The translations under genes were made by a program, and so were the position numbers. Below the pieces are notes generated by a model that had not been told where the DNA came from, did not search any database, and saw nothing but the letters and a program-made list of their open reading frames with translations. This document shows, in pieces, positions 1-8,850 of a DNA stretch of 13,111 nucleotides. Every line of letters begins with the position of its first letter. Position 1 is the stretch's first letter. Source of the DNA: a virus (taxonomy: Duplodnaviria; Heunggongvirae; Uroviricota; Caudoviricetes); IMG/VR virus record IMGVR_UViG_2703718818_000015, positions 1 through 13,111 of that record, one strand, 5' to 3'.

Positions 1-1053
1 TTACGGGGTAATGCCAACCGTTGCCGCCACTTTGTCGCCACTTGGCAGCGTTGCCAGAGGATTGAAACGGAGCGCCGTTTCCAGATGATCCGGTGCCAGA
101 TGTGCGTAACGCATAGTCATTTTTATATCGTGGTGTCCGAGAATTTTTTGTAAGGCCAGAATGTTTCCACCCGACATCATGAAGTGCGCTGCAAACGTAT
201 GGCGCAGAACGTGTGTGAGTTGACCGCGAGGGAGCACGATAGACGTTTTTTCCATCACGGATAAAAATTGAAAATAGCAGTCTGTGAAGAAATTGAACCC
301 ATCGAGCGCCATGATCTCTTCGTAAAGCTCTTTACTGATAGGGATGCTTCTGTTTTTCTTCCCCTTCGTTCTGACAAAGGTAATTCGGTATTTGGTCACC
401 TGTGAGCGGGTAAGATTTACGGCTTCACGCCAGCGTGCGCCTGTGCTTAAGCATATCTTAACTACCAGTGCCAGAATTGGGTCCTGACGTTTGCAATCAG
501 CCAGCAATTCAACAATCTGCTCATGGGTAAGCCATGCCATCTCTTTTTCTGCGATGGTGAATTTTCGCATGTTCTCCAGTGGGTTCGGATACGACCATTC
601 GCCCAGACGGGATAGTTCGCTAAAAACACTACTTAGATAGCTTTGCTCCAGGTTAATGGTGACCGGGCTTGCTCCTTTCTTCCATTTCTCGCTGAAGTAG
701 ATCTCGCCTGTCAGGCGTTTATCTCGATAGTGGGCAAACATTTTAGAGGTGAGATCGGTTGCAAGAGGATTGCCCAGAGCGTCAACCATCAACAGCAATT
801 TGTCATAGACATGCTGCCCAGCTGTCAGAGATTTACCATGTAGTTTGAACCATAGTTCAACCACGTCTTTCAGTGTTCGACGATCCACTGATTCACCCAG
901 CCAGGGCTTTGCTTCGGCTTCTTCCATCGTGTGACGCTCAAAAGCCAGTGCTTCGCCTTTGGTGGCGAATTGTTTACGCACACGACGCCCACTTCGTCCG
1001 GCGGGGTAACATTCGCAAAGCCATTTCCCTGTGGTGAGTTTTCGTACTGCCAT
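1..1053 (-). CDS. int: Phage tyrosine integrase (P2/186 family), 350 aa
   Basis: 350-aa ORF with C-terminal tyrosine-recombinase pattern (...HVLRHTFAAHF...MRYAHL...). ATG at 1051-1053 is preceded on the minus strand by GGAGGG. Sits at the prophage end next to the repressor operon. Stop codon is at 1-3, so the CDS is complete. Confidence 0.9.
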   Translation of the reverse strand: MAVRKLTTGKWLCECYPAGRSGRRVRKQFATKGEALAFERHTMEEAEAKPWLGESVDRRTLKDVVELWFKLHGKSLTAGQHVYDKLLLMVDALGNPLATDLTSKMFAHYRDKRLTGEIYFSEKWKKGASPVTINLEQSYLSSVFSELSRLGEWSYPNPLENMRKFTIAEKEMAWLTHEQIVELLADCKRQDPILALVVKICLSTGARWREAVNLTRSQVTKYRITFVRTKGKKNRSIPISKELYEEIMALDGFNFFTDCYFQFLSVMEKTSIVLPRGQLTHVLRHTFAAHFMMSGGNILALQKILGHHDIKMTMRYAHLAPDHLETALRFNPLATLPSGDKVAATVGITP

Positions 1054-1058
1054 AAAAA

Positions 1059-1079
1059 ATGCCCTCCAGTGGAGAGCAT
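1059..1079 (-). promoter_or_regulatory. 21-bp imperfect palindrome/hairpin flanked by A6 and T5, overlapping the int Shine-Dalgarno; candidate terminator/attenuator or operator
   Basis: ATGCCCTCCAGTGGAGAGCAT pairs at 9 of 10 arm positions. Read on the minus strand the stem is followed by TTTTTT and then the int ATG. The GGAGGG SD lies inside the 3' arm. Confidence 0.4.
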
Positions 1080-1106
1080 TTTTACTGTATGTATAACCAG
1101 TGTCAA
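1078..1106 (-). promoter_or_regulatory. Putative sigma70 promoter for int (-35 TTGACA, 16-17 bp spacer, A/T-rich -10)
   Basis: The minus-strand reading of 1101-1106 is a perfect TTGACA. A TAAAAA/AAAAAT -10-like hexamer lies 16-17 bp downstream (plus-strand 1078-1084). Hexamer match only, no experimental support. Confidence 0.3.
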
Positions 1107-1131
1107 TGTATGATGCTTAAGGTTACATACA

Positions 1132-1503
1132 TCATAAGTACCGATATGATTGCGGGGCCGTTATGTTATCACCTAATGAACTTAGATGAAGTGGTTGGTC
1201 ATAGATTTTTAGATTACCAATTTCTATAGCAAAGGCCTTTTCTTTGCTATGAAAATATGAGTCAAAAAATTGTTTACTGATACCCGCGTATTGGCTTGTT
1301 TTTTCCCATACAATACTTGGCTTGTCTTCTATAACATCTGCAATGTCAAATTCAGCAACAACTTTACCGACAGGCATTGTTGAATAAATAACCACAGATT
1401 TTACATCCGGTTTTTTGAAAATTCCTTTTCGGAATTCAAATTTCTTTGTTCCATTAAGGATTTTTTCTACATGCTCTGGGTTAATTGACAATAATACTTT
1501 CAT
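1132..1503 (-). CDS. ASCH-domain (PUA-like fold) protein, ~123 aa; cargo gene 3
   Basis: ORF 1132-1515; likely ATG start at 1501-1503 (a TTG at 1513-1515 is the alternative). GxKxxExR signature of ASCH domains present (G-T-K-K-F-E-F-R, nt 1429-1452). Size and N-terminal KVLLSI...EKIL pattern are typical of stand-alone ASCH proteins. Start overlaps the 3' end of the upstream gene by 23 nt. Confidence 0.7.
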   Translation of the reverse strand: MKVLLSINPEHVEKILNGTKKFEFRKGIFKKPDVKSVVIYSTMPVGKVVAEFDIADVIEDKPSIVWEKTSQYAGISKQFFDSYFHSKEKAFAIEIGNLKIYDQPLHLSSLGDNITAPQSYRYL

Positions 1504-2551
1504 TGACGCCACCAAGTTTAATAATGCTATTAAACTGTTCGTTTGTTAACTTCATGATCCCCCAGTAAGCTCGCGGGGATAATCCTACTTCAGAAATAAG
1601 TTTAGCACGATTTAGTCTTTTGGGCAAAGCAAGGTTATATGTAAAGCTTATAATATATGGGTATTTTTTTGTTCTATAAAAACTTTTAAGCTCAGATTCT
1701 GTAAAAACAGAATATCTAGAACAGTAATTTAGAAATTCTTTCTCTGTAACGAAAGAGTTTATATTTCTAACTTTTTCTACTACACATAAAGAAGTAGCAA
1801 CAGAACGGTAATATGCAGGCCCTTGATTATCGGATGTTCGGTATATAACGATTATATCGTTTGGCTTCATTAATTCAACATCTGACATGCCACAAATATA
1901 TACTTTTCTAATGCTATTTGCATATGATACATCAGCAACAACGTCTGGTGACTCTGTAATTAATTTTGAGTCAGGGAATAAACGAGTATGAAATACGGGG
2001 TATATTGAAAGCAAGAATTTATTTTCACTGCCTCTGTTATTAATAAATGGATAATCTGACAGTATATCGCCCGTAAGAGCATTACTATTCATTTCTTTTA
2101 TTAGTACTCGCTCTACACCATTTTCAGATTCTTTTACTCCAATATCTATAAAGCCATAGATTTTGAATAGTCTAATTAAGTAGTCATGTTTTTCAAAAAC
2201 AGTCACATATATATTGTTAGCATTATTATCTAGAGCGTGATCGAATATTTTTTTTAAAAATCGTTGACCACGAAGAGTTCCTTTTGGATTAAATTTAAAT
2301 GTTCCAACTTTTAGATGAATACCATCAGGAATATTTGGTTTTGTATCTTCAATGATACCTACTTCTGTTTTTAGATACAAAAAACCATCAATTTTATTTT
2401 GTTCATCATAAAGGACATATGCATAATCATTTGATTTACATTTAGAATGGAACCAATCAATAAACCCATGAGCATAATCGGATTTTAAAGAGTCAAAAAA
2501 AACATCAGAAAAATCTACTTGATTAAAAGGTATGTATTTTAAGTTTTCCAT
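1481..2551 (-). CDS. Two-domain protein, 356 aa: N-terminal GNAT-like (acyl-CoA N-acyltransferase fold) region, C-terminal PUA/ASCH-like region; cargo gene 2
   Basis: ATG at 2549-2551 with AGGA ~10 nt upstream, 2 nt after the stop of the upstream gene. N-terminal ~145 aa shows GNAT-like pattern (...YVLYDEQNKIDGFLYLK... / ...NNIYVTVFEKHDYLIRLFKIYGF...). C-terminal ~170 aa has beta-rich PUA-like character (...KVYICGMSDVELMKPNDIIVIY...). Domain calls are by eye only. Confidence 0.65.
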   Translation of the reverse strand: MENLKYIPFNQVDFSDVFFDSLKSDYAHGFIDWFHSKCKSNDYAYVLYDEQNKIDGFLYLKTEVGIIEDTKPNIPDGIHLKVGTFKFNPKGTLRGQRFLKKIFDHALDNNANNIYVTVFEKHDYLIRLFKIYGFIDIGVKESENGVERVLIKEMNSNALTGDILSDYPFINNRGSENKFLLSIYPVFHTRLFPDSKLITESPDVVADVSYANSIRKVYICGMSDVELMKPNDIIVIYRTSDNQGPAYYRSVATSLCVVEKVRNINSFVTEKEFLNYCSRYSVFTESELKSFYRTKKYPYIISFTYNLALPKRLNRAKLISEVGLSPRAYWGIMKLTNEQFNSIIKLGGVNESIIVN

Positions 2552-2553
2552 GT

Positions 2554-3336
2554 TTACAATCCTATTTTAAAATCACATGATAAGCAAATTGATTTAGTTT
2601 TAGATATGACGGCGAGTGTTTTCCCCGGAGTTTGACAATTAGTACAAACATTCCAATTTTTCGGTTTTCCATCAATCTTATATATGTTGGCTAAAATATC
2701 ATCTAAAGGAAAAAATGTTTTCATCATGTCTATAATGCTTGCTGCATAGTTTTTCTTTGCCTCGGCTAATTTTTGTTCAGGCATGTTTTTATCATTTATC
2801 AAGCAATGAACCAGGTTATTAAGAGGCTCTTGATATATCTCCTCTCGAAAAATTAGAAATGCACTTAAAAAGTCTTTACGTATTTCTTTATTATTACTTT
2901 TACCTAAGTGAATTACTTTATTTCTTTCTTTGCGCAAAATATCATAAATTTCATTAAAGCGCGGTGAAAGATTTCGCCCACTGATACTTTGTGCTATTCT
3001 ATGTAGTTCGGTTGCGTCTAATGTTGAACATTCGAAAAAAGATTTGTTTTTATAGCAGTCTTTTACTTCTTTTAAAAGTAAATAAACACTATGCTCAGCA
3101 ATTATAGACTTTAGATATATTTCAGCAGAATTAAAGAGTATTACCAAGCCAGATTGAAAGAAACTCTCTTTTTCGGATATTAAGCGTTTCAGTCGTTGTT
3201 CTTCTGTTTCAGGTTGAGCTGGGGCTTGCAATAACTCAATGTCAGAATAAAAGTGTAAGTAGAATGTTTTAATGAAAAACTCAAGGTTCCTTTTGGCATA
3301 AAGAAGCATCTCTTCATTGTTAGGAAGGTCTGTCAT
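2554..3336 (-). CDS. HEPN-like protein with C-terminal C4 zinc ribbon, 260 aa; cargo gene 1 (putative RNase-type effector)
   Basis: ATG at 3334-3336 directly abuts the cI stop (3337-3339), with AAGGA 7 nt upstream. R-N-K-V-I-H (residues 138-143, nt 2908-2925) matches the HEPN Rx4-6H motif in a helical context. C-terminus has CxxC-x16-CxxC (C231, C234, C251, C254). Very AT-rich coding sequence. Confidence 0.65.
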   Translation of the reverse strand: MTDLPNNEEMLLYAKRNLEFFIKTFYLHFYSDIELLQAPAQPETEEQRLKRLISEKESFFQSGLVILFNSAEIYLKSIIAEHSVYLLLKEVKDCYKNKSFFECSTLDATELHRIAQSISGRNLSPRFNEIYDILRKERNKVIHLGKSNNKEIRKDFLSAFLIFREEIYQEPLNNLVHCLINDKNMPEQKLAEAKKNYAASIIDMMKTFFPLDDILANIYKIDGKPKNWNVCTNCQTPGKTLAVISKTKSICLSCDFKIGL

Positions 3337-4293
3337 TTAAATATCCTTATATATACCAAAACATTTTGCTATTACATTAATATCCGCTAATAGACATTCA
3401 AAAGTTGTACTTTCATTAGATACTTTTACTTTTGCAATTGGAATTCTGGTTAGATCTCTAACACTAAATTTTCCTTCGATTTCAACTAACCATTTTCCAT
3501 CGGTTACTTCATCAAATGCTTTGTCTGCAAGATATACATTTCCTTCATCTACTATAGATATGGGTTTTTTCACCTTGCTGGGTAACATGGTTTTATCAAA
3601 AGGGAGATAATTTGTATCAAACAACATACCATTTATAACTTTTTTCCGTGTGATAGCAATAATATCGCTCTTAGCGTCTTCAAAGACAGGACCATTACCG
3701 GTTGTTAGCCACATTAATGAAGCTCCGGTTTCAAGTGCGCACTGGATGATCCAATCAGCTGGAAAGGTATCTCTCATGTAACGATTGGCTAATGTGCTTT
3801 TTGAAACACCAATGTGATCCGCTAGAGCTTGCCTTGTCTTAAATCCATAGGCGATAACTATTCGCTCGATTGCCGCTTTTCCTCCTTGATTAACCTCAAT
3901 GAGGCTCTCGTTCTTTCGGTGAGTATTGTTCTCATTTGGGGATTTTGTGTCTAAAGTGAGAGAATGAATCTCCTTACCATCTTTATGGTGGTTCTGTTCT
4001 GTATTATGTGTGACAGCCTCTACTGTGTTATCGGTACCAAATGCCAACCATTCAACCGACACGCCAGTTTCCATGCTGCAGATTATGACCCAGTCGGCAG
4101 GGAAGGTATCACGAGCATATCTGTTCGCCATTGTGCTTTGGGATATCCCTAAGTGGTTACAGAATGCTTGACGTGAAGTGAAGCCATAAGCTTTCAAAAT
4201 TCGGTCAATGACCTGTTGTCCTCCACGATTCTGCATGATTACAGTTTTCATTGCATCATCAACATGGCGAAATGTGATTTTGTGTGTTGACAT
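3337..4293 (-). CDS. cI: Phage 186-type CI immunity repressor with duplicated N-terminal HTH domain, 318 aa
   Basis: Residues ~141-318 resemble 186 CI (HTH N-domain then oligomerisation C-domain). Residues 28-87 are an internal repeat of residues 141-200, roughly 60% identical by eye (both contain ...AYGF..RQA...G.S.ST.ANRY.RDTFPADW.I.C..ETG...WL). ATG at 4291-4293. Divergent from apl. Confidence 0.8.
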   Translation of the reverse strand: MSTHKITFRHVDDAMKTVIMQNRGGQQVIDRILKAYGFTSRQAFCNHLGISQSTMANRYARDTFPADWVIICSMETGVSVEWLAFGTDNTVEAVTHNTEQNHHKDGKEIHSLTLDTKSPNENNTHRKNESLIEVNQGGKAAIERIVIAYGFKTRQALADHIGVSKSTLANRYMRDTFPADWIIQCALETGASLMWLTTGNGPVFEDAKSDIIAITRKKVINGMLFDTNYLPFDKTMLPSKVKKPISIVDEGNVYLADKAFDEVTDGKWLVEIEGKFSVRDLTRIPIAKVKVSNESTTFECLLADINVIAKCFGIYKDI

Positions 4294-4381
4294 ATCCGTT
4301 TTGCGATCCTATTCTCCGATTTGTGAAGTTGAAGTCACGATTAAAACCTGCTTATCACAAGACAATAGGAGATGTTGCATC
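4294..4381. promoter_or_regulatory. cI/apl divergent switch region (expected location of lytic/lysogenic promoters and operators)
   Basis: 88-bp gap between divergent cI and apl start codons. Contains apl SD AGGAG (4366-4370) and a tandem GAAGTT/GAAGTC repeat (4325-4336). Promoter hexamers could not be assigned confidently. Confidence 0.4.
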
Positions 4382-4603
4382 ATGACCCCTAACATTTCAA
4401 TAACTCTGAATACGCCACACGTCACAATTGAGCGTTATAGCGAACTTACTGGTCTTTCGATCGACACAATCAACGATATGCTGGCTGATGGTCGCATCCC
4501 TCGGCATCGTCTCCGTAAAGACAAGAAAAGAGAAAAGGTAATGATCAACCTTGCTGCTCTTACCGTTGATGCACTGACTGATTGCAATGTTGTATTCAAC
4601 TAG
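4382..4603 (+). CDS. apl: Apl/Cox-like excisionase and transcriptional regulator, 73 aa
   Basis: ATG at 4382 with AGGAG 11 nt upstream. HTH-like segment ([25 protein letters not shown]). Sits between cI and cII as in phage 186. The longer ORF 4208-4603 has its 5' extension antisense inside cI and is rejected. Confidence 0.65.
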
Positions 4604-4635
4604 TTCCATTTTGAGATACATCAGGGATGTCGACT

Positions 4636-5145
4636 ATGTTTGATTACCAAGTTTCCAAACATCCACATTTTGATGAAGCCTGTCGTGCATTCGCATTGCG
4701 CCACAACCTGGTGCAACTGGCAGAACGTGCAGGCATGAATGTGCAGATTCTGCGGAACAAGCTGAACCCAGCTCAACCTCATTTATTAACCGCACCAGAA
4801 ATCTGGCTGCTTACCGATCTGACTGAAGATTCAACGCTGATAGATGGTTTTCTGGCACAGATTCACTGCCTGCCATGTGTACCGATTAATGAGGTAGCAA
4901 AAGAGAAACTGCCGCATTACGTCATGAGTGCAACCGCAGAGATCGGGCGTGTTGCTGCAGGTGCGGTATCTGGCGATGTAAAAACCAGTGCAGGTCGTCG
5001 TGATGCTATCAGCAGCATTAACTCTGTAACACGACTGATGGCGCTGGCTGCTGTTTCATTGCAGGCCCGTTTACAGGCTAACCCTGCGATGGCGAGTGCA
5101 GTTGATACCGTGACTGGCCTCGGCGCCTCATTCGGTTTGCTGTGA
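4636..5145 (+). CDS. cII: Phage 186 CII-type lysogeny establishment regulator, 169 aa
   Basis: Strong resemblance to remembered 186 CII ([21 protein letters not shown]...[17 protein letters not shown]...[27 protein letters not shown]...). ATG at 4636 with AGGGA 8 nt upstream; an in-frame ATG at 4627 is the alternative. Confidence 0.85.
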
Positions 5146-5152
5146 GGTACTT

Positions 5153-5449
5153 ATGCTGACGAAAGAACCATCATTTGCATCGCTGCTGGTAAAGCAAAGC
5201 CCGGCAATGCACTACGGTCACGGCTGGATCATGGGTGAGGATGGAAAACGCTGGCATCCATGTCATTCACAAGATGAATTGCTGTCTCAATTGACCACGA
5301 GGAAACGGAGAAAGTCAAAATGTATGCAGCGGAAAGTGAAGTGGTTTATCAGTTTCGTTACAGAGGGGAGAGTTATTCAGTACCTGAAGATGATTTGCTC
5401 TGTTGTTATCCGTCGTTGTCGGGCGATGGCAGTTACTTTTTCACGCTAA
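5153..5449 (+). CDS. Hypothetical early protein (98-aa ORF; C-terminal third overlaps the next ORF in another frame)
   Basis: ATG at 5153 with GAGG 5 nt upstream, immediately after the cII stop. The N-terminal ~55 aa look protein-like; the C-terminal part overlaps ORF 5320-5544. Confidence 0.4.
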   Translation: MLTKEPSFASLLVKQSPAMHYGHGWIMGEDGKRWHPCHSQDELLSQLTTRKRRKSKCMQRKVKWFISFVTEGRVIQYLKMICSVVIRRCRAMAVTFSR

Positions 5450-6436: not shown

Positions 6437-7290
6437 GCACCATCCTGAAATGGGCGGGAAATAAAACCGCCGTAATGTCCGAACTGAAAAAACATCTTCC
6501 TGCTGGTCCGCGACTAGTTGAACCTTTCGCGGGTTCCTGTGCTGTGATGATGGAGACGGATTATCCCTGCTATCTGGTTGCGGATATTAATCCTGATTTA
6601 ATCAACCTCTATAAAAAGGTTGCCGCTGATTGTGAATCGTTTATATCTCGCGCCAAAGTTTTATTTGAGATCGCAAACAGGGAGGTGGCTTATTACAACA
6701 TAAGGCAGGAGTTTAATTACTCAACTGAAATTACTGATTTCATGAAAGCGGTATATTTCCTGTATCTCAATCGTCACGGTTACCGTGGGTTATGTCGCTA
6801 TAACAAGAGCGGGCATTTCAACATTCCCTACGGTAATTATAAAAATCCGTATTTCCCTGAAAAAGAAATTCGCGCTTTTGCAGAAAAAGCCCAGCGAGCA
6901 ACGTTTATCTGCGCCAGCTTTGATGAAACGCTGGCGATGTTGAAGGCGGGGGATGTGGTGTATTGCGATCCGCCTTATGACGGTACGTTTTCCGGCTATC
7001 ACGCTGACGGCTTTACTGAAGATGACCAGTATCACCTGGCATCCGTTCTTGAACATCGGTCATCAGAAGGACATCCGGTCATTGTTTCTAACAGTGACAC
7101 ATCCCTGATCCGTTCGCTGTATCGCAATTTTACTCACCACTATATCAAGGTAAAACGCAGCATCGGCGTAGCAGCTGGTGAGAGTAAATCAGCAACAGAA
7201 ATCATTGCTGTTTCCGGGCCGCGCTGCTGGGTGGGATTTGATTATTCGCGTGGCGTGGATAGTTCTGCCGTGTACGGAGTACGTGCATGA
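6433..7290 (+). CDS. dam: Dam-family DNA adenine (N6) methyltransferase, GATC-type, 285 aa
   Basis: Close resemblance to E. coli Dam over the whole length (LKWAGNK SAM motif, LVEPF.G, ADIN.DLI.LY, FLYLNR.GY.GLCRYN, catalytic DPPY). GGAGG SD 7 nt upstream. Confidence 0.9.
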
Positions 7291-8333
7291 GCCATGCCGA
7301 TATGAGCAACTGCTGCGGCTTTAACGAGGCTGCCGCATCGTTCTCATGGAACAGCCCGAAAAAGGCCATTAACCCTTATCTGGACCCGGCGGAAGTTGCG
7401 CCGGTTTCTGCGCTTTCAAACCTGATCACTCTGTACGCTGCCGATAACGAGCAGGAACAACTGCGCCGCGAGGCACTGAGTGATCAGGTCTGGGAGCGTT
7501 ATTTCTTTAATGAATCCCGTGATCCTGTCCAACGCGAAATAGAGCAGGATAAGCTCATTAGCCGGGCAAAGTTGGCGCATGAGCAGCAGCGTTTTAACCC
7601 GGACATGGTCATTCTGGCAGACGTCAGCGCCCAGCCCTCCCATATCAGCAAGCCGCTGATGCAACGTATTGAATACTTCAGCAGCCTGGGCAGGCCAAAG
7701 GCTTATTCCCGCTATTTACGTGAGACGATTAAGCCATGTCTGGAACGACTGGAGCATGTACGCGACAGCCAGCTATCTGCATCTTTTCGTTTTATGGCAA
7801 GCCATGTAGGGCTGGACGGCCTGCTGATTCTGCCTGAAATGAGTCAGGATCAGGTGAAACGCCTGTCTACCCTTGTCGCTGCGCATATGAGCATGTGCCT
7901 TGATGCAGCTTGTGGTGATTTGTATGCCACCGATGACGTTAAGCCGGAAGAAATCCGCAAGACATGGGAAAAGGTGGCAGCGGAAACCCTGCGTCTGGAT
8001 GTCATCCCGCCTGCGTTTGAGCAACTCCGTCGGAAAAGAAACCGCCGTAAACCCGTGCCCTATGAACTCATTCCGGGTTCGCTGGCGCGTATGTTGTGCG
8101 CCGACTGGTGGTACCGGAAATTATGGAAAATGCGTTGCGAATGGCGGGAAGAGCAGTTGCGTGCTGTCTGCCTGGTCAGCAAAAAAGCATCTCCCTATGT
8201 CAGCTATGAAGCCGTGATGCATAAACGTGAGCAGCGCCGCAAGTCACTGGAGTTTTTCCGTTCTCATGAACTGGTGAACGAAGAGGGCGACACGCTGGAT
8301 ATGGAAGACGTGGTATCAGTGCAGCGCGGGTGA
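7287..8333 (+). pseudogene. A: Replication initiation gene A, N-terminal ~348-aa fragment (3' half deleted)
   Basis: Position after dam, as the replication gene in P2/186. C-terminal region resembles the remembered P2 gpA mid-region (...WWY.KL......W.E..L.AV..V.K..SPY.S..A....R.....LEF...). Full-length gpA is roughly twice this size, and the ORF is followed 46 nt later by tail gene U. Confidence 0.6.
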
Positions 8334-8379
8334 AGGCAAAAGCCAGGAGTAACTACAGCGATCAGGGGGGATACGACGC

Positions 8380-8850
8380 ATGATGATGGTGCTGGGATTG
8401 TACGTGGTGCCGTATCAGGAGCTGCAGTATCAACGCAGCTGGCGACATGCGGCAAACAGCCGGGTAAACCGACGTCCGTCCACGCAGTTTCTGGGACCGG
8501 ACAACGACATGCTGACGCTTTCCGGTGTTCTTATGCCGGAGATAACAGGTGGCAGGCTGTCGTTGCTGGCACTGGAGCAGATGGCAGAACAGGGGAAAGC
8601 ATGGCCCCTGATTGAAGGCAGCGGCACGATTTATGGCATGTATGTGATTGAGGGACTGAATCAGACTAAAACGGAGTTTTTCCGCGACGGTATGCCGCGC
8701 CGGATTGAGTTCACCCTGTCGCTCAAACGGGTGGATGAATCCCTGTCCGATATGTTCGGTGATCTCAGTGCGCAGCTGAATAATCTGCAGGGAACGGCAA
8801 CATCTGCCTTAAGCGATATCAGTAAAACGGTGGGAGGGCTTCTGTCGTGA
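8380..8850 (+). CDS. U: P2-type tail protein U, 156 aa
   Basis: Resembles remembered P2 gpU (MML.LG...; ...LSGVL.PE.TGG.L...L....AE.G.AWPL..G.G.IYGMYVI...F...G.PR.I.FTLSL.RVDESL). Stop overlaps the start of D (GTGA). Confidence 0.85.
   Translation: MMMVLGLYVVPYQELQYQRSWRHAANSRVNRRPSTQFLGPDNDMLTLSGVLMPEITGGRLSLLALEQMAEQGKAWPLIEGSGTIYGMYVIEGLNQTKTEFFRDGMPRRIEFTLSLKRVDESLSDMFGDLSAQLNNLQGTATSALSDISKTVGGLLS

Follow-up and report, generated by a model that had tools for sequence, protein, structure and literature searches.

A 186-type CI repressor with two helix-turn-helix domains of different classes in P2/186-like prophages

The CI switch of coliphage 186 is among the best-quantified models of cooperative repression. 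Seven CI dimers form a 14-mer wheel, DNA is wrapped and is looped to the FL and FR sites, and a single helix-turn-helix (HTH) domain recognizes two types of site. We analyzed the cI gene of a P2/186-like prophage found in a 13,111-nucleotide stretch of viral DNA (IMG/VR record IMGVR_UViG_2703718818_000015; the whole stretch is referred to here as the window). This gene encodes a CI protein with two such domains, designated D1 and D2. The window CI and 186 CI share the HTH family (PF07022) and the C-terminal fold (PF16452; PDB 2FJR and 2FKD; template modelling [TM] score of 0.92 to 2fkd). The loci share the gene order of int, cI and pR facing apl-cII-fil, with the start of cI abutting the −35 element of pR; as in the 186 annotation, cI of the window runs leftward with int and faces a pR-apl-cII lytic operon. 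The 186 record places three CI sites over pR from the cI ATG, FL at 270 to 285 bp inside cI and FR at the apl/cII junction, and the window has three candidate sites at pR and one candidate site of a different class within cI (353 nt from the ATG), in a position that resembles that of FL. In the 186 pattern, the pR operators are separated by about two turns of DNA and the distal sites are ∼300 bp away. Other features differed. The 186 CI has one HTH domain in 192 amino acids, whereas the window CI has two HTH domains of different classes and a 41-residue disordered tether in 318 amino acids; the pR sites of 186 are inverted repeats, whereas the candidate pR sites of the window are asymmetric direct repeats; and the single 186 domain reads site types A and B, whereas in the window two site types may be split between the domains. 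The window CI is a 186-type CI by domain, fold and gene context, and it departs from the family pattern of one HTH per monomer and ∼190 amino acids in its domain number.

Single-domain CIs of 198 amino acids (WP_000107902.1 of Escherichia coli ECCHD184 and P0031 of Enterobacter roggenkampii) provided a second comparison. The D2 and C-terminal domain (CTD) of the window CI are up to 75% identical to these proteins, whose N terminus corresponds to the leader that precedes D2; pR geometry and start codon are shared, and one of these proteins is accompanied by an identical Apl. They lack D1 and its leader (a 411-nt indel), and their pR is flanked by CCCAAWTGRG palindromes. An engineered lambda-186 hybrid repressor (PDB 7JVT) supports modular swapping or addition of domains, as its 186 CTD accepts a foreign N-terminal DNA-binding domain, although this protein is artificial, its domain was replaced rather than added and each chain has a single domain. 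Two DNA-binding domains per chain read an asymmetric site in the immunity repressor of mycobacteriophage TipsytheTRex, but that protein has an unrelated fold (an HTH and a "stirrup" domain that are not paralogues), is monomeric and acts on stoperators (PMC9283540). A putative XRE-family repressor with two tandem HTH domains, phiCDKH01_17, occurs in a Clostridioides difficile phage but belongs to another HTH family (cd00093 XRE) and lacks a 186-type CTD (PMC11172241). No description of a two-HTH 186-type CI was found in the literature, of which our coverage was partial and does not prove absence, and databases label the double-HTH proteins simply as "phage repressor protein CI." The double-HTH CI is a common, conserved and apparently unstudied variant of the 186-type repressor.

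The gene and the segments of its product were assigned as follows.

3337-4293, minus strand: cI, 318 amino acids, comprising leader, D1, linker, D2 and C-terminal domain; stop codon at 3337-3339
4228-4293, minus strand: leader, residues 1 to 22 (MSTHKITFRH...); its ATG overlaps the pR −35 hexamer
4030-4227, minus strand: D1, residues 23 to 88, first Phage_CI_repr domain; helix 2 ..AFCNHL, recognition helix SQSTMANRYAR
3889-4029, minus strand: linker, residues 89 to 135, disordered, rich in S, N, E and P, hypervariable; its C-terminal end is a relic single-domain-CI leader
3691-3888, minus strand: D2, residues 136 to 201, second Phage_CI_repr domain, of the 198-amino-acid single-domain class; helix 2 ..ALADHI, recognition helix SKSTLANRYMR
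3340-3690, minus strand: inter-domain linker and C-terminal oligomerization domain (Phage_CI_C; PF16452 and Foldseek)

An initial annotation of this locus had described two paralogous copies of a 186-CI-type DNA-binding domain joined by a low-complexity linker, at residues 28 to 87 (4033-4212) and 141 to 200 (3694-3873), and this mapping was exact. BLASTP of residues 1 to 131 against residues 132 to 318 aligned residues 22 to 116 with residues 135 to 227 at 47% identity (95 residues; E = 6e-32), and Pfam (cut-off of 22 bits) detected two PF07022 Phage_CI_repr stretches (combined E = 9.6e-58) followed by PF16452 Phage_CI_C at residues 214 to 312 (E = 7.2e-31). The presence of an extra domain relative to 186 CI was also borne out, since the 189-residue 186 CI structure (2fjr) aligned by phmmer to residues 141 to 318 only, leaving residues 1 to ∼135 as the additional part. 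In an AlphaFold2 monomer model, D1 and D2 were confident five-helix domains (helical bundles at residues 25 to 85 and 138 to 198) with a predicted local distance difference test score (pLDDT) of ∼87 to 95. Residues 90 to 131 of the S/N/E/P-rich linker had a pLDDT of <50 and were disordered. Foldseek matched the modelled CTD to the 186 CI CTD (2fkd_A; TM score of 0.92; root mean square deviation of 1.3 Å); this conservation of the fold is compatible with a 14-mer wheel but is not proof of one. The fixed differences between D1 and D2 were located in helix 2 of the HTH (CN versus AD) and in the recognition helix (Q/K, M/L and A/M), and the D1 recognition helix was nearly invariant within its own class while differing from that of D2 at DNA-facing positions. 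On this sequence evidence, D1 and D2 belong to different recognition-helix classes.

The distribution of this architecture was examined in E. coli (a collection of 5,426 complete genomes) and among protein clusters. A cI gene with 99.8% identity, annotated "phage repressor protein CI," was present in 28 of the complete genomes, and the sole locus of these 28 that was inspected (L001; strain ExPEC XM) has a full-length gpA. DNA resembling the leader and D1 was detected in 302 of the 5,426 genomes. Full-length homologues with 52 to 63% identity occurred in Klebsiella phages belonging to two Peduoviridae genera, including 4LV2017 and ST11-OXA245phi3.1. Residues 20 to 318 of the window CI were 100% identical to the representative of cluster P0001 (119 member sequences). 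Two domains were present in 47 of the best 120 clusters formed at 90% identity, with identities down to 42% and with hosts in Escherichia, Klebsiella, Enterobacter, Citrobacter, Kosakonia, Salmonella and Edwardsiella, and two domain stretches were detected in ∼20 of the best 150 representatives at 50% identity, in proteins of 260 to 330 amino acids. A single frame encoding leader, D1, a linker of 36 to 52 amino acids, relic leader, D2 and CTD was common to at least 46 clusters. Among 54 related loci sampled from one genome per species, 2 had double-domain CIs; nearly all of the 54 had single-domain CIs, which served as controls. A protein search with the leader and D1 (residues 1 to 94) yielded 16 matches, all of them fragments from which the frequency of single-domain D1-type CIs is not readable.

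Selection on each segment was estimated by the Nei-Gojobori method from the proportions of nonsynonymous (pN) and synonymous (pS) differences between the window and eight loci. The pN values were 0.04 to 0.12 in D1 (at a pS of 0.68 to 0.94) and 0.03 to 0.14 in D2, with pS being 0.5 to 0.94 across the two domains and mostly saturated. The linker, by comparison, had a pN of 0.47 to 0.64, indicative of near-free sequence evolution, and a length with a median of 41 residues (range, 36 to 52) in the 46 clusters. An internal start producing a normal-length CI below an untranslated upstream copy, which the initial annotation had raised against its own proposal, is unavailable because no in-frame ATG, GTG or TTG was present between residues 84 and 172. 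Its other reservation, that the first copy might be an unrelated domain, was answered by the Pfam match, as this copy is a bona fide PF07022 domain. These codon patterns indicated that D1 and D2 are parts of one polypeptide and that both are under strong purifying selection. The double-HTH architecture is old and widespread in the P2/186-like prophages of Enterobacterales.

Two other types of protein were encountered during these searches. P0072, encoded by locus L005 of Dryocola sp. BD586, has 229 amino acids comprising D1, linker and D2; its frame ends shortly after D2 and lacks the oligomerization domain, and this may be either a gene in decay or a protein that naturally consists of the two N-terminal domains only. 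Long library proteins with 3 to 8 CI-HTH stretches were also observed (P0167, 1,034 amino acids and 8 stretches; P0192, 651 and 8; P0159, 1,480 and 3; P0186, 484 and 5; P0211, 521 and 5) and may represent either CI-type HTH arrays or gene calls that were fused.

The relationship between the two domains was examined by comparisons within and between proteins. D1 had 43 to 68% identity (mean, 57%) to the D2 of the same protein but 70% identity to other D1s, while D2 had on average 73% identity to the domains of single-domain CIs. In a neighbor-joining tree, D1s formed their own clades (35+3, 6 and 2 members) and D2s were interleaved with single-domain sequences. The stretch preceding D2 (consensus, K.P[IN]E..IN.NQGG) matched the N-terminal leader of the 198-amino-acid single-domain CI (MPTSKYPNEIKINPNQGG...). 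At the DNA level, homology to an Enterobacter locus with a 198-amino-acid CI (L062) extended from 845 to 3873, a span covering the end of int, all three cargo genes, the CTD and D2, stopped exactly at the start of D2 and resumed at 4285; D1 and the linker corresponded to a 411-nt indel (3874-4284) on the promoter side of cI. A recent tandem duplication or gene conversion was ruled out by the lower identity of D1 to its own D2 than to other D1s (∼70%). The local duplication implied by the term "tandemly duplicated" in the initial annotation was not upheld, given the 47% identity of the copies, their separate positions in the tree and the single-domain-CI leader in front of D2. Arrival of the extra copy with the adjacent cargo, also proposed there, was rejected because L062 has the same three cargo genes beside a single-domain CI that lacks D1 and because other double-HTH loci carry quite different cargo; D1 is, moreover, located on the promoter side. 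Judging from these alignments, the double CI seems to have arisen long ago by fusion of two immunity classes, each consisting of an "operator plus domain" cassette.

Candidate promoter and operator sequences for the two domains were as follows.

4287-4315, plus strand: candidate lytic promoter pR (TTGACA, 17-nt spacer, TATTCT; 10 of 12 matches), reading toward apl
4316-4326, 4296-4306 and 4267-4277, minus strand: three TCRCAWWWCG repeats in the same orientation, bracketing or within pR; candidate D1-class operators
4323-4338, plus strand: dyad GTGAAGTTGAAGTCAC (GTGA-N8-TCAC), just downstream of the pR −10 and overlapping the first repeat; an alternative reading of operator "a"
3931-3940, minus strand: CCCAAATGAG (CCCAAWTGRG), in linker-coding DNA, 353 nt from the cI ATG; candidate distal FL-like operator

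The pR candidate has the same relative position as the annotated 186 pR and was conserved in 10 loci. The TCRCAWWWCG repeats are spaced by 20 and 29 bp, and double loci with a D1 of the major class have all three. The outer repeats coincide in position with the palindromic operators found in single-domain relatives, and the third is located within leader codons I-T-F-R-H, where the 13-mer ATGGCGAAATGTG (4264-4276; cI-sense CACATTTCGCCAT, codons T-F-R-H) was invariant in ten loci with synonymously saturated flanking codons. The GTGA-N8-TCAC dyad was also conserved in other double loci. The D1 class and the pR sequence were correlated across loci. L064 encodes a rare 207-amino-acid single-domain CI (P0094) with a D1-type leader and domain and has these three sites, again 20 and 29 bp apart. 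Doubles with other D1 classes had different pR sequences that resembled the operators of single-domain CIs with the same helix: L065, with a 186-like D1 helix, has CTCACAAAATGTGAG palindromes at pR, and L066, with a D1 helix like that of single-domain L016, has L016-like pR sites. Both of these loci kept the D2 class and the linker motif.

The operator consensus of 186 was not directly transferable to the window, because the counts of 186-type patterns were at the level of shuffled sequence for the B type (TTCAC-N5-GTGAA) and equally for the A-type-like CCCAAWTGGG (2 mismatches) and GTGA-N8-TCAC. D1-class sites were not detected at distances like those of FL or FR, and no FR-like site was identified. 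Generic repeat finding in 3300-5200 produced only short two-copy families at chance level; an exact 10-mer, GATTTTGTGT, at 3941 and 4276 belonged to such a chance-level family and was not relied on.

A different motif was associated with D2. In all 8 D2-class single-domain loci (helix signature, ALADHL/SKSTLANRY), CCCAAWTGRG is present at −42 and +17 from the cI ATG, flanking pR, with the +17 copy in codons 6 to 9 (Y-P-N-E/G). The motif was absent from pR in the double-HTH loci (0/12), and no D2-class half-site was recognizable there. It was detected instead in the linker DNA of 7 of the 12 double loci, compared with a background frequency of 0.22 per kb, in one orientation and at a position homologous to +17; the distance to the GG codons of D2 was 31 nt in six of these loci, and an 8-codon insertion in the window extends it to 55 nt. 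The copy at 3931-3940 is the sole exact match in 5.9 kb around cI. The corresponding peptide, P-[IN]-[EG], was kept in 31 of 46 clusters, and its radical N/I and E/G swaps coincided exactly with the degenerate W and R positions of the motif, which suggests a constraint at the level of DNA rather than of peptide. D2-class single-domain phages were present in 173 of the 5,426 complete E. coli genomes, in at least one case with an Apl identical to that of the double type. The initial annotation had proposed that two HTH units per monomer might provide a second DNA target. This proposal is plausible and was indirectly supported by the association of different recognition-helix classes with different operator motifs.

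Position, repetition or conservation, and the correlation with domain class formed the basis of a model for the double CI, to which we assign about an even chance of being correct. In this model, two "operator plus HTH" cassettes have been fused in front of one 186-type oligomerization domain, with D1 acting on the resident switch and D2 reading CCCAAWTGRG. The leader-coding DNA of each domain-coding cassette would contain the operator for that domain, and two such cassettes in series would make up the double CI. D1 would bind the resident pR operators (TCRCAWWWCG; 4264-4326) and hold the lytic operon off, a role assigned to it because D1 varies between lineages together with the pR sequences. 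D2 would bind CCCAAWTGRG, which has been lost from pR and kept at 3931-3940; this assignment was made because D2 is constant, is selected as strongly as D1 and has kept its recognition helix. The CTD would assemble dimers into a 186-like wheel, which, with two HTH domains per subunit on a long tether, would carry 28 HTH domains if it forms, and D2 bound within cI would link the oligomer to pR by looping out ∼350 bp. Repression of incoming single-domain-class phages, which co-circulate in E. coli, could be a further function of this D2, so that the roles of D2 may be intragenic anchoring, heteroimmune repression or both. Such a natural variant would make it possible to ask how the number of domains affects operator class, spacing and looping and whether one protein can combine several immunity specificities, and it could account for new immunity types arising by fusion of operator-plus-domain cassettes. 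The proteins concerned are the repressors of P2/186-like prophages in ∼5% of complete E. coli genomes and in clinical Klebsiella.

A stronger version of this model, which we regard as possible but doubtful, is that the polypeptide combines two immunity specificities, with D1 controlling its own switch, D2 repressing the pR of co-circulating single-domain-CI phages (CCCAAWTGRG operators) and the relic site serving as an FL-like anchor. A double-type lysogen would then be immune to both types of phage and the reverse would not apply, an asymmetric "immunity capture" that would explain the preservation of D2 under purifying selection.

Several observations weigh against the assignment of D1 to the pR repeats and of D2 to the linker site. 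The TCRCAWWWCG pattern was derived from the same sites that it describes, and the middle repeat is located in the pR spacer, is similar in single-domain D2-class loci and may be promoter sequence. The L064 locus comes from one metagenomic sequence, possibly a nonfunctional product of deletion. The double loci are often related by descent, so that the number of independent observations is approximately three D1 classes. The linker motif was missing from 5 of the 12 double loci (L058, L060, L061, L002 and L067), and a loop through this site is therefore not essential everywhere; where present, the motif could persist only because the leader peptide matters. The inter-domain geometry of the AlphaFold2 model was not confident (predicted TM score of 0.54), and neither the placement of D1 relative to D2 and the CTD nor a pseudo-dimer is readable from it.

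The asymmetry of the pR sites raised the alternative that D1 and D2 of one monomer dock side by side on composite operators as a "heterodimer," which would alter symmetry and specificity with no second target. The two pR-flanking sites of single-domain relatives are 16-bp palindromes (GTACCCAATTGGGAAC and similar), while the homologous sites in all doubles of the major D1 class are nonpalindromic and in one orientation (TCACAAATCGG, TCACATTTCGC). The flexible 41-residue linker would permit adjacent docking, and the monomeric mycobacteriophage repressor with two domains on an asymmetric site is a precedent (PMC9283540). However, the same asymmetric sites and spacing were present in L064, which has a D1-type domain only, and palindromic pR sites (CTCACAAAATGTGAG) were present in L065, which combines another D1 with the same D2. 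As pR also lacks a recognizable D2-class half-site, we consider this arrangement unlikely.

It appears improbable that D2 and the CTD form the working repressor and that D1 is an accessory without operator binding, acting as a decoy or sensor for a Tum-like antirepressor or as a modulator of induction. D2 plus CTD would alone make up a complete CI, being 75% identical to the 198-amino-acid P0031. Induction in 186 proceeds through Tum, an antirepressor under LexA control, rather than through self-cleavage. The region that holds tum in 186 has been deleted from the window, and an intact relative has a DinI-like gene beyond gpA. Shearwin et al. are said to have reported in 1998 that 186-type CIs are inactivated by an antirepressor and not by cleavage, which would also favor an accessory role. 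Against such a role, the D2-class motif, which flanks pR in 8 of 8 D2-class single-domain loci, is missing from the pR of double loci, and the D1 recognition helix is class conserved and unlike that of D2 at DNA-facing positions. Furthermore, a D1-type domain is the only DNA-binding domain in P0094 of L064, and the D1 class co-varies with the pR sequence.

An artefact, whether through gene fusion or decay in a defective prophage or through an untranslated upstream copy with an internal start, is very improbable: the window prophage is a deletion remnant, PGAP and the open reading frame (ORF) list differ on the start codon and the relative P0072/L005 is truncated in the CTD, but no fewer than 46 clusters, as well as Klebsiella phages that were induced or sequenced, have the frame-preserving architecture, prophages with full-length gpA carry the gene at 99.8% identity, both copies are under purifying selection with a linker conserved in length and not in sequence, and there is no canonical start codon between residues 84 and 172.

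The two candidate start codons of cI, M1 (4293) and M20 (4236), both keep D1 intact. PGAP assigns the E. coli gene to M20 (299 amino acids; WP_009008398.1). The related 198-amino-acid single-domain CIs start at a homologous ATGTCAAC that overlaps the pR −35, and this is the start annotated for them by PGAP. Position 20 was I or L in 7 of 32 long-leader homologues, and the codon, where the DNA was read, was ATA in L058 and L061 and CTG in L004; ATA is unable to initiate. The leader motif T-F-R-H was conserved, and these three observations favored M1. Leader codons 1 to 22 had a pS of 0.25 to 0.51, about half of the 0.7 to 0.9 in D1. This reduced synonymous divergence points to an overlapping constraint on the DNA, so that part of the leader conservation lies at the DNA level and is weakened as evidence for M1. 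Neither codon is preceded by a good Shine-Dalgarno sequence. Overall, M1 is the probable start, and the RefSeq/PGAP start of the double-HTH CI subfamily is probably misannotated systematically.

The prophage is inserted beside ybjL-ybjM-grxA, and its other features were as follows.

1-1053, minus strand: integrase gene int (ORF list)
1132-3336, minus strand: three cargo genes between int and cI
4382-4603, plus strand: apl, Cox-like excisionase/repressor of 73 amino acids, first gene of the pR operon; PGAP coding sequence in L001
4627-5145, plus strand: cII (Phage_CP76; Pfam E = 3.8e-42)
Downstream of cII: fil and small genes, a dam methylase, truncated gpA (7287-8333), gpU, gpD and ogr

The whole late region is missing from this deletion remnant. 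The gpA product covers the Pfam profile only up to position 152 of 321, and gpU, gpD and ogr come immediately after it, with a junction near 8319-8333. The two halves of the junction matched gpA and the tape-measure/gpU region separately, and none of the 5,426 complete E. coli genomes spanned it (region 7287-8850).

The cI gene is directly upstream of a hotspot for defence cargo and probably drives its expression from the lysogenic promoter. Of the three cargo products, an ASCH-domain protein and a 356-amino-acid protein matched the PADLOC candidate defence system PDC-M11 (component B, E = 5e-48; component A, E = 2e-130), and a 260-amino-acid protein had a weak match to DUF3644. The same trio adjoins the single-domain CI of Enterobacter roggenkampii (L062), while the hotspot of other double-HTH loci contains GmrSD_N+HEPN, AAA_15/DUF4276 or WYL genes.

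On the other side of cI, a 131-amino-acid ORF at 4208-4603 (plus strand) is an upstream extension of apl that overlaps the 5′ end of cI. The apl product (4382-4603) had no Pfam match; the 186 record describes the apl product at this position as a Cox-like excisionase. An identical Apl protein (WP_000188448.1) is encoded by a double-HTH prophage (L001; 5691-5912) and by a heteroimmune prophage with a single-domain CI (L068; 1239-1460), and the immunity module has its mosaic boundary shortly past pR, following AATCGTGAC. The sequence CTCAATTGTG at 4423-4432, within the 5′ portion of apl, was kept in several double loci, and L062 has a perfect palindrome, TTTCAATTGAAA, at the equivalent position. 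This sequence resembles the core of the central 186 pR operator (CTCAATTGGGAG) and is located where pL is expected, and it may be a weak CI site at pL.

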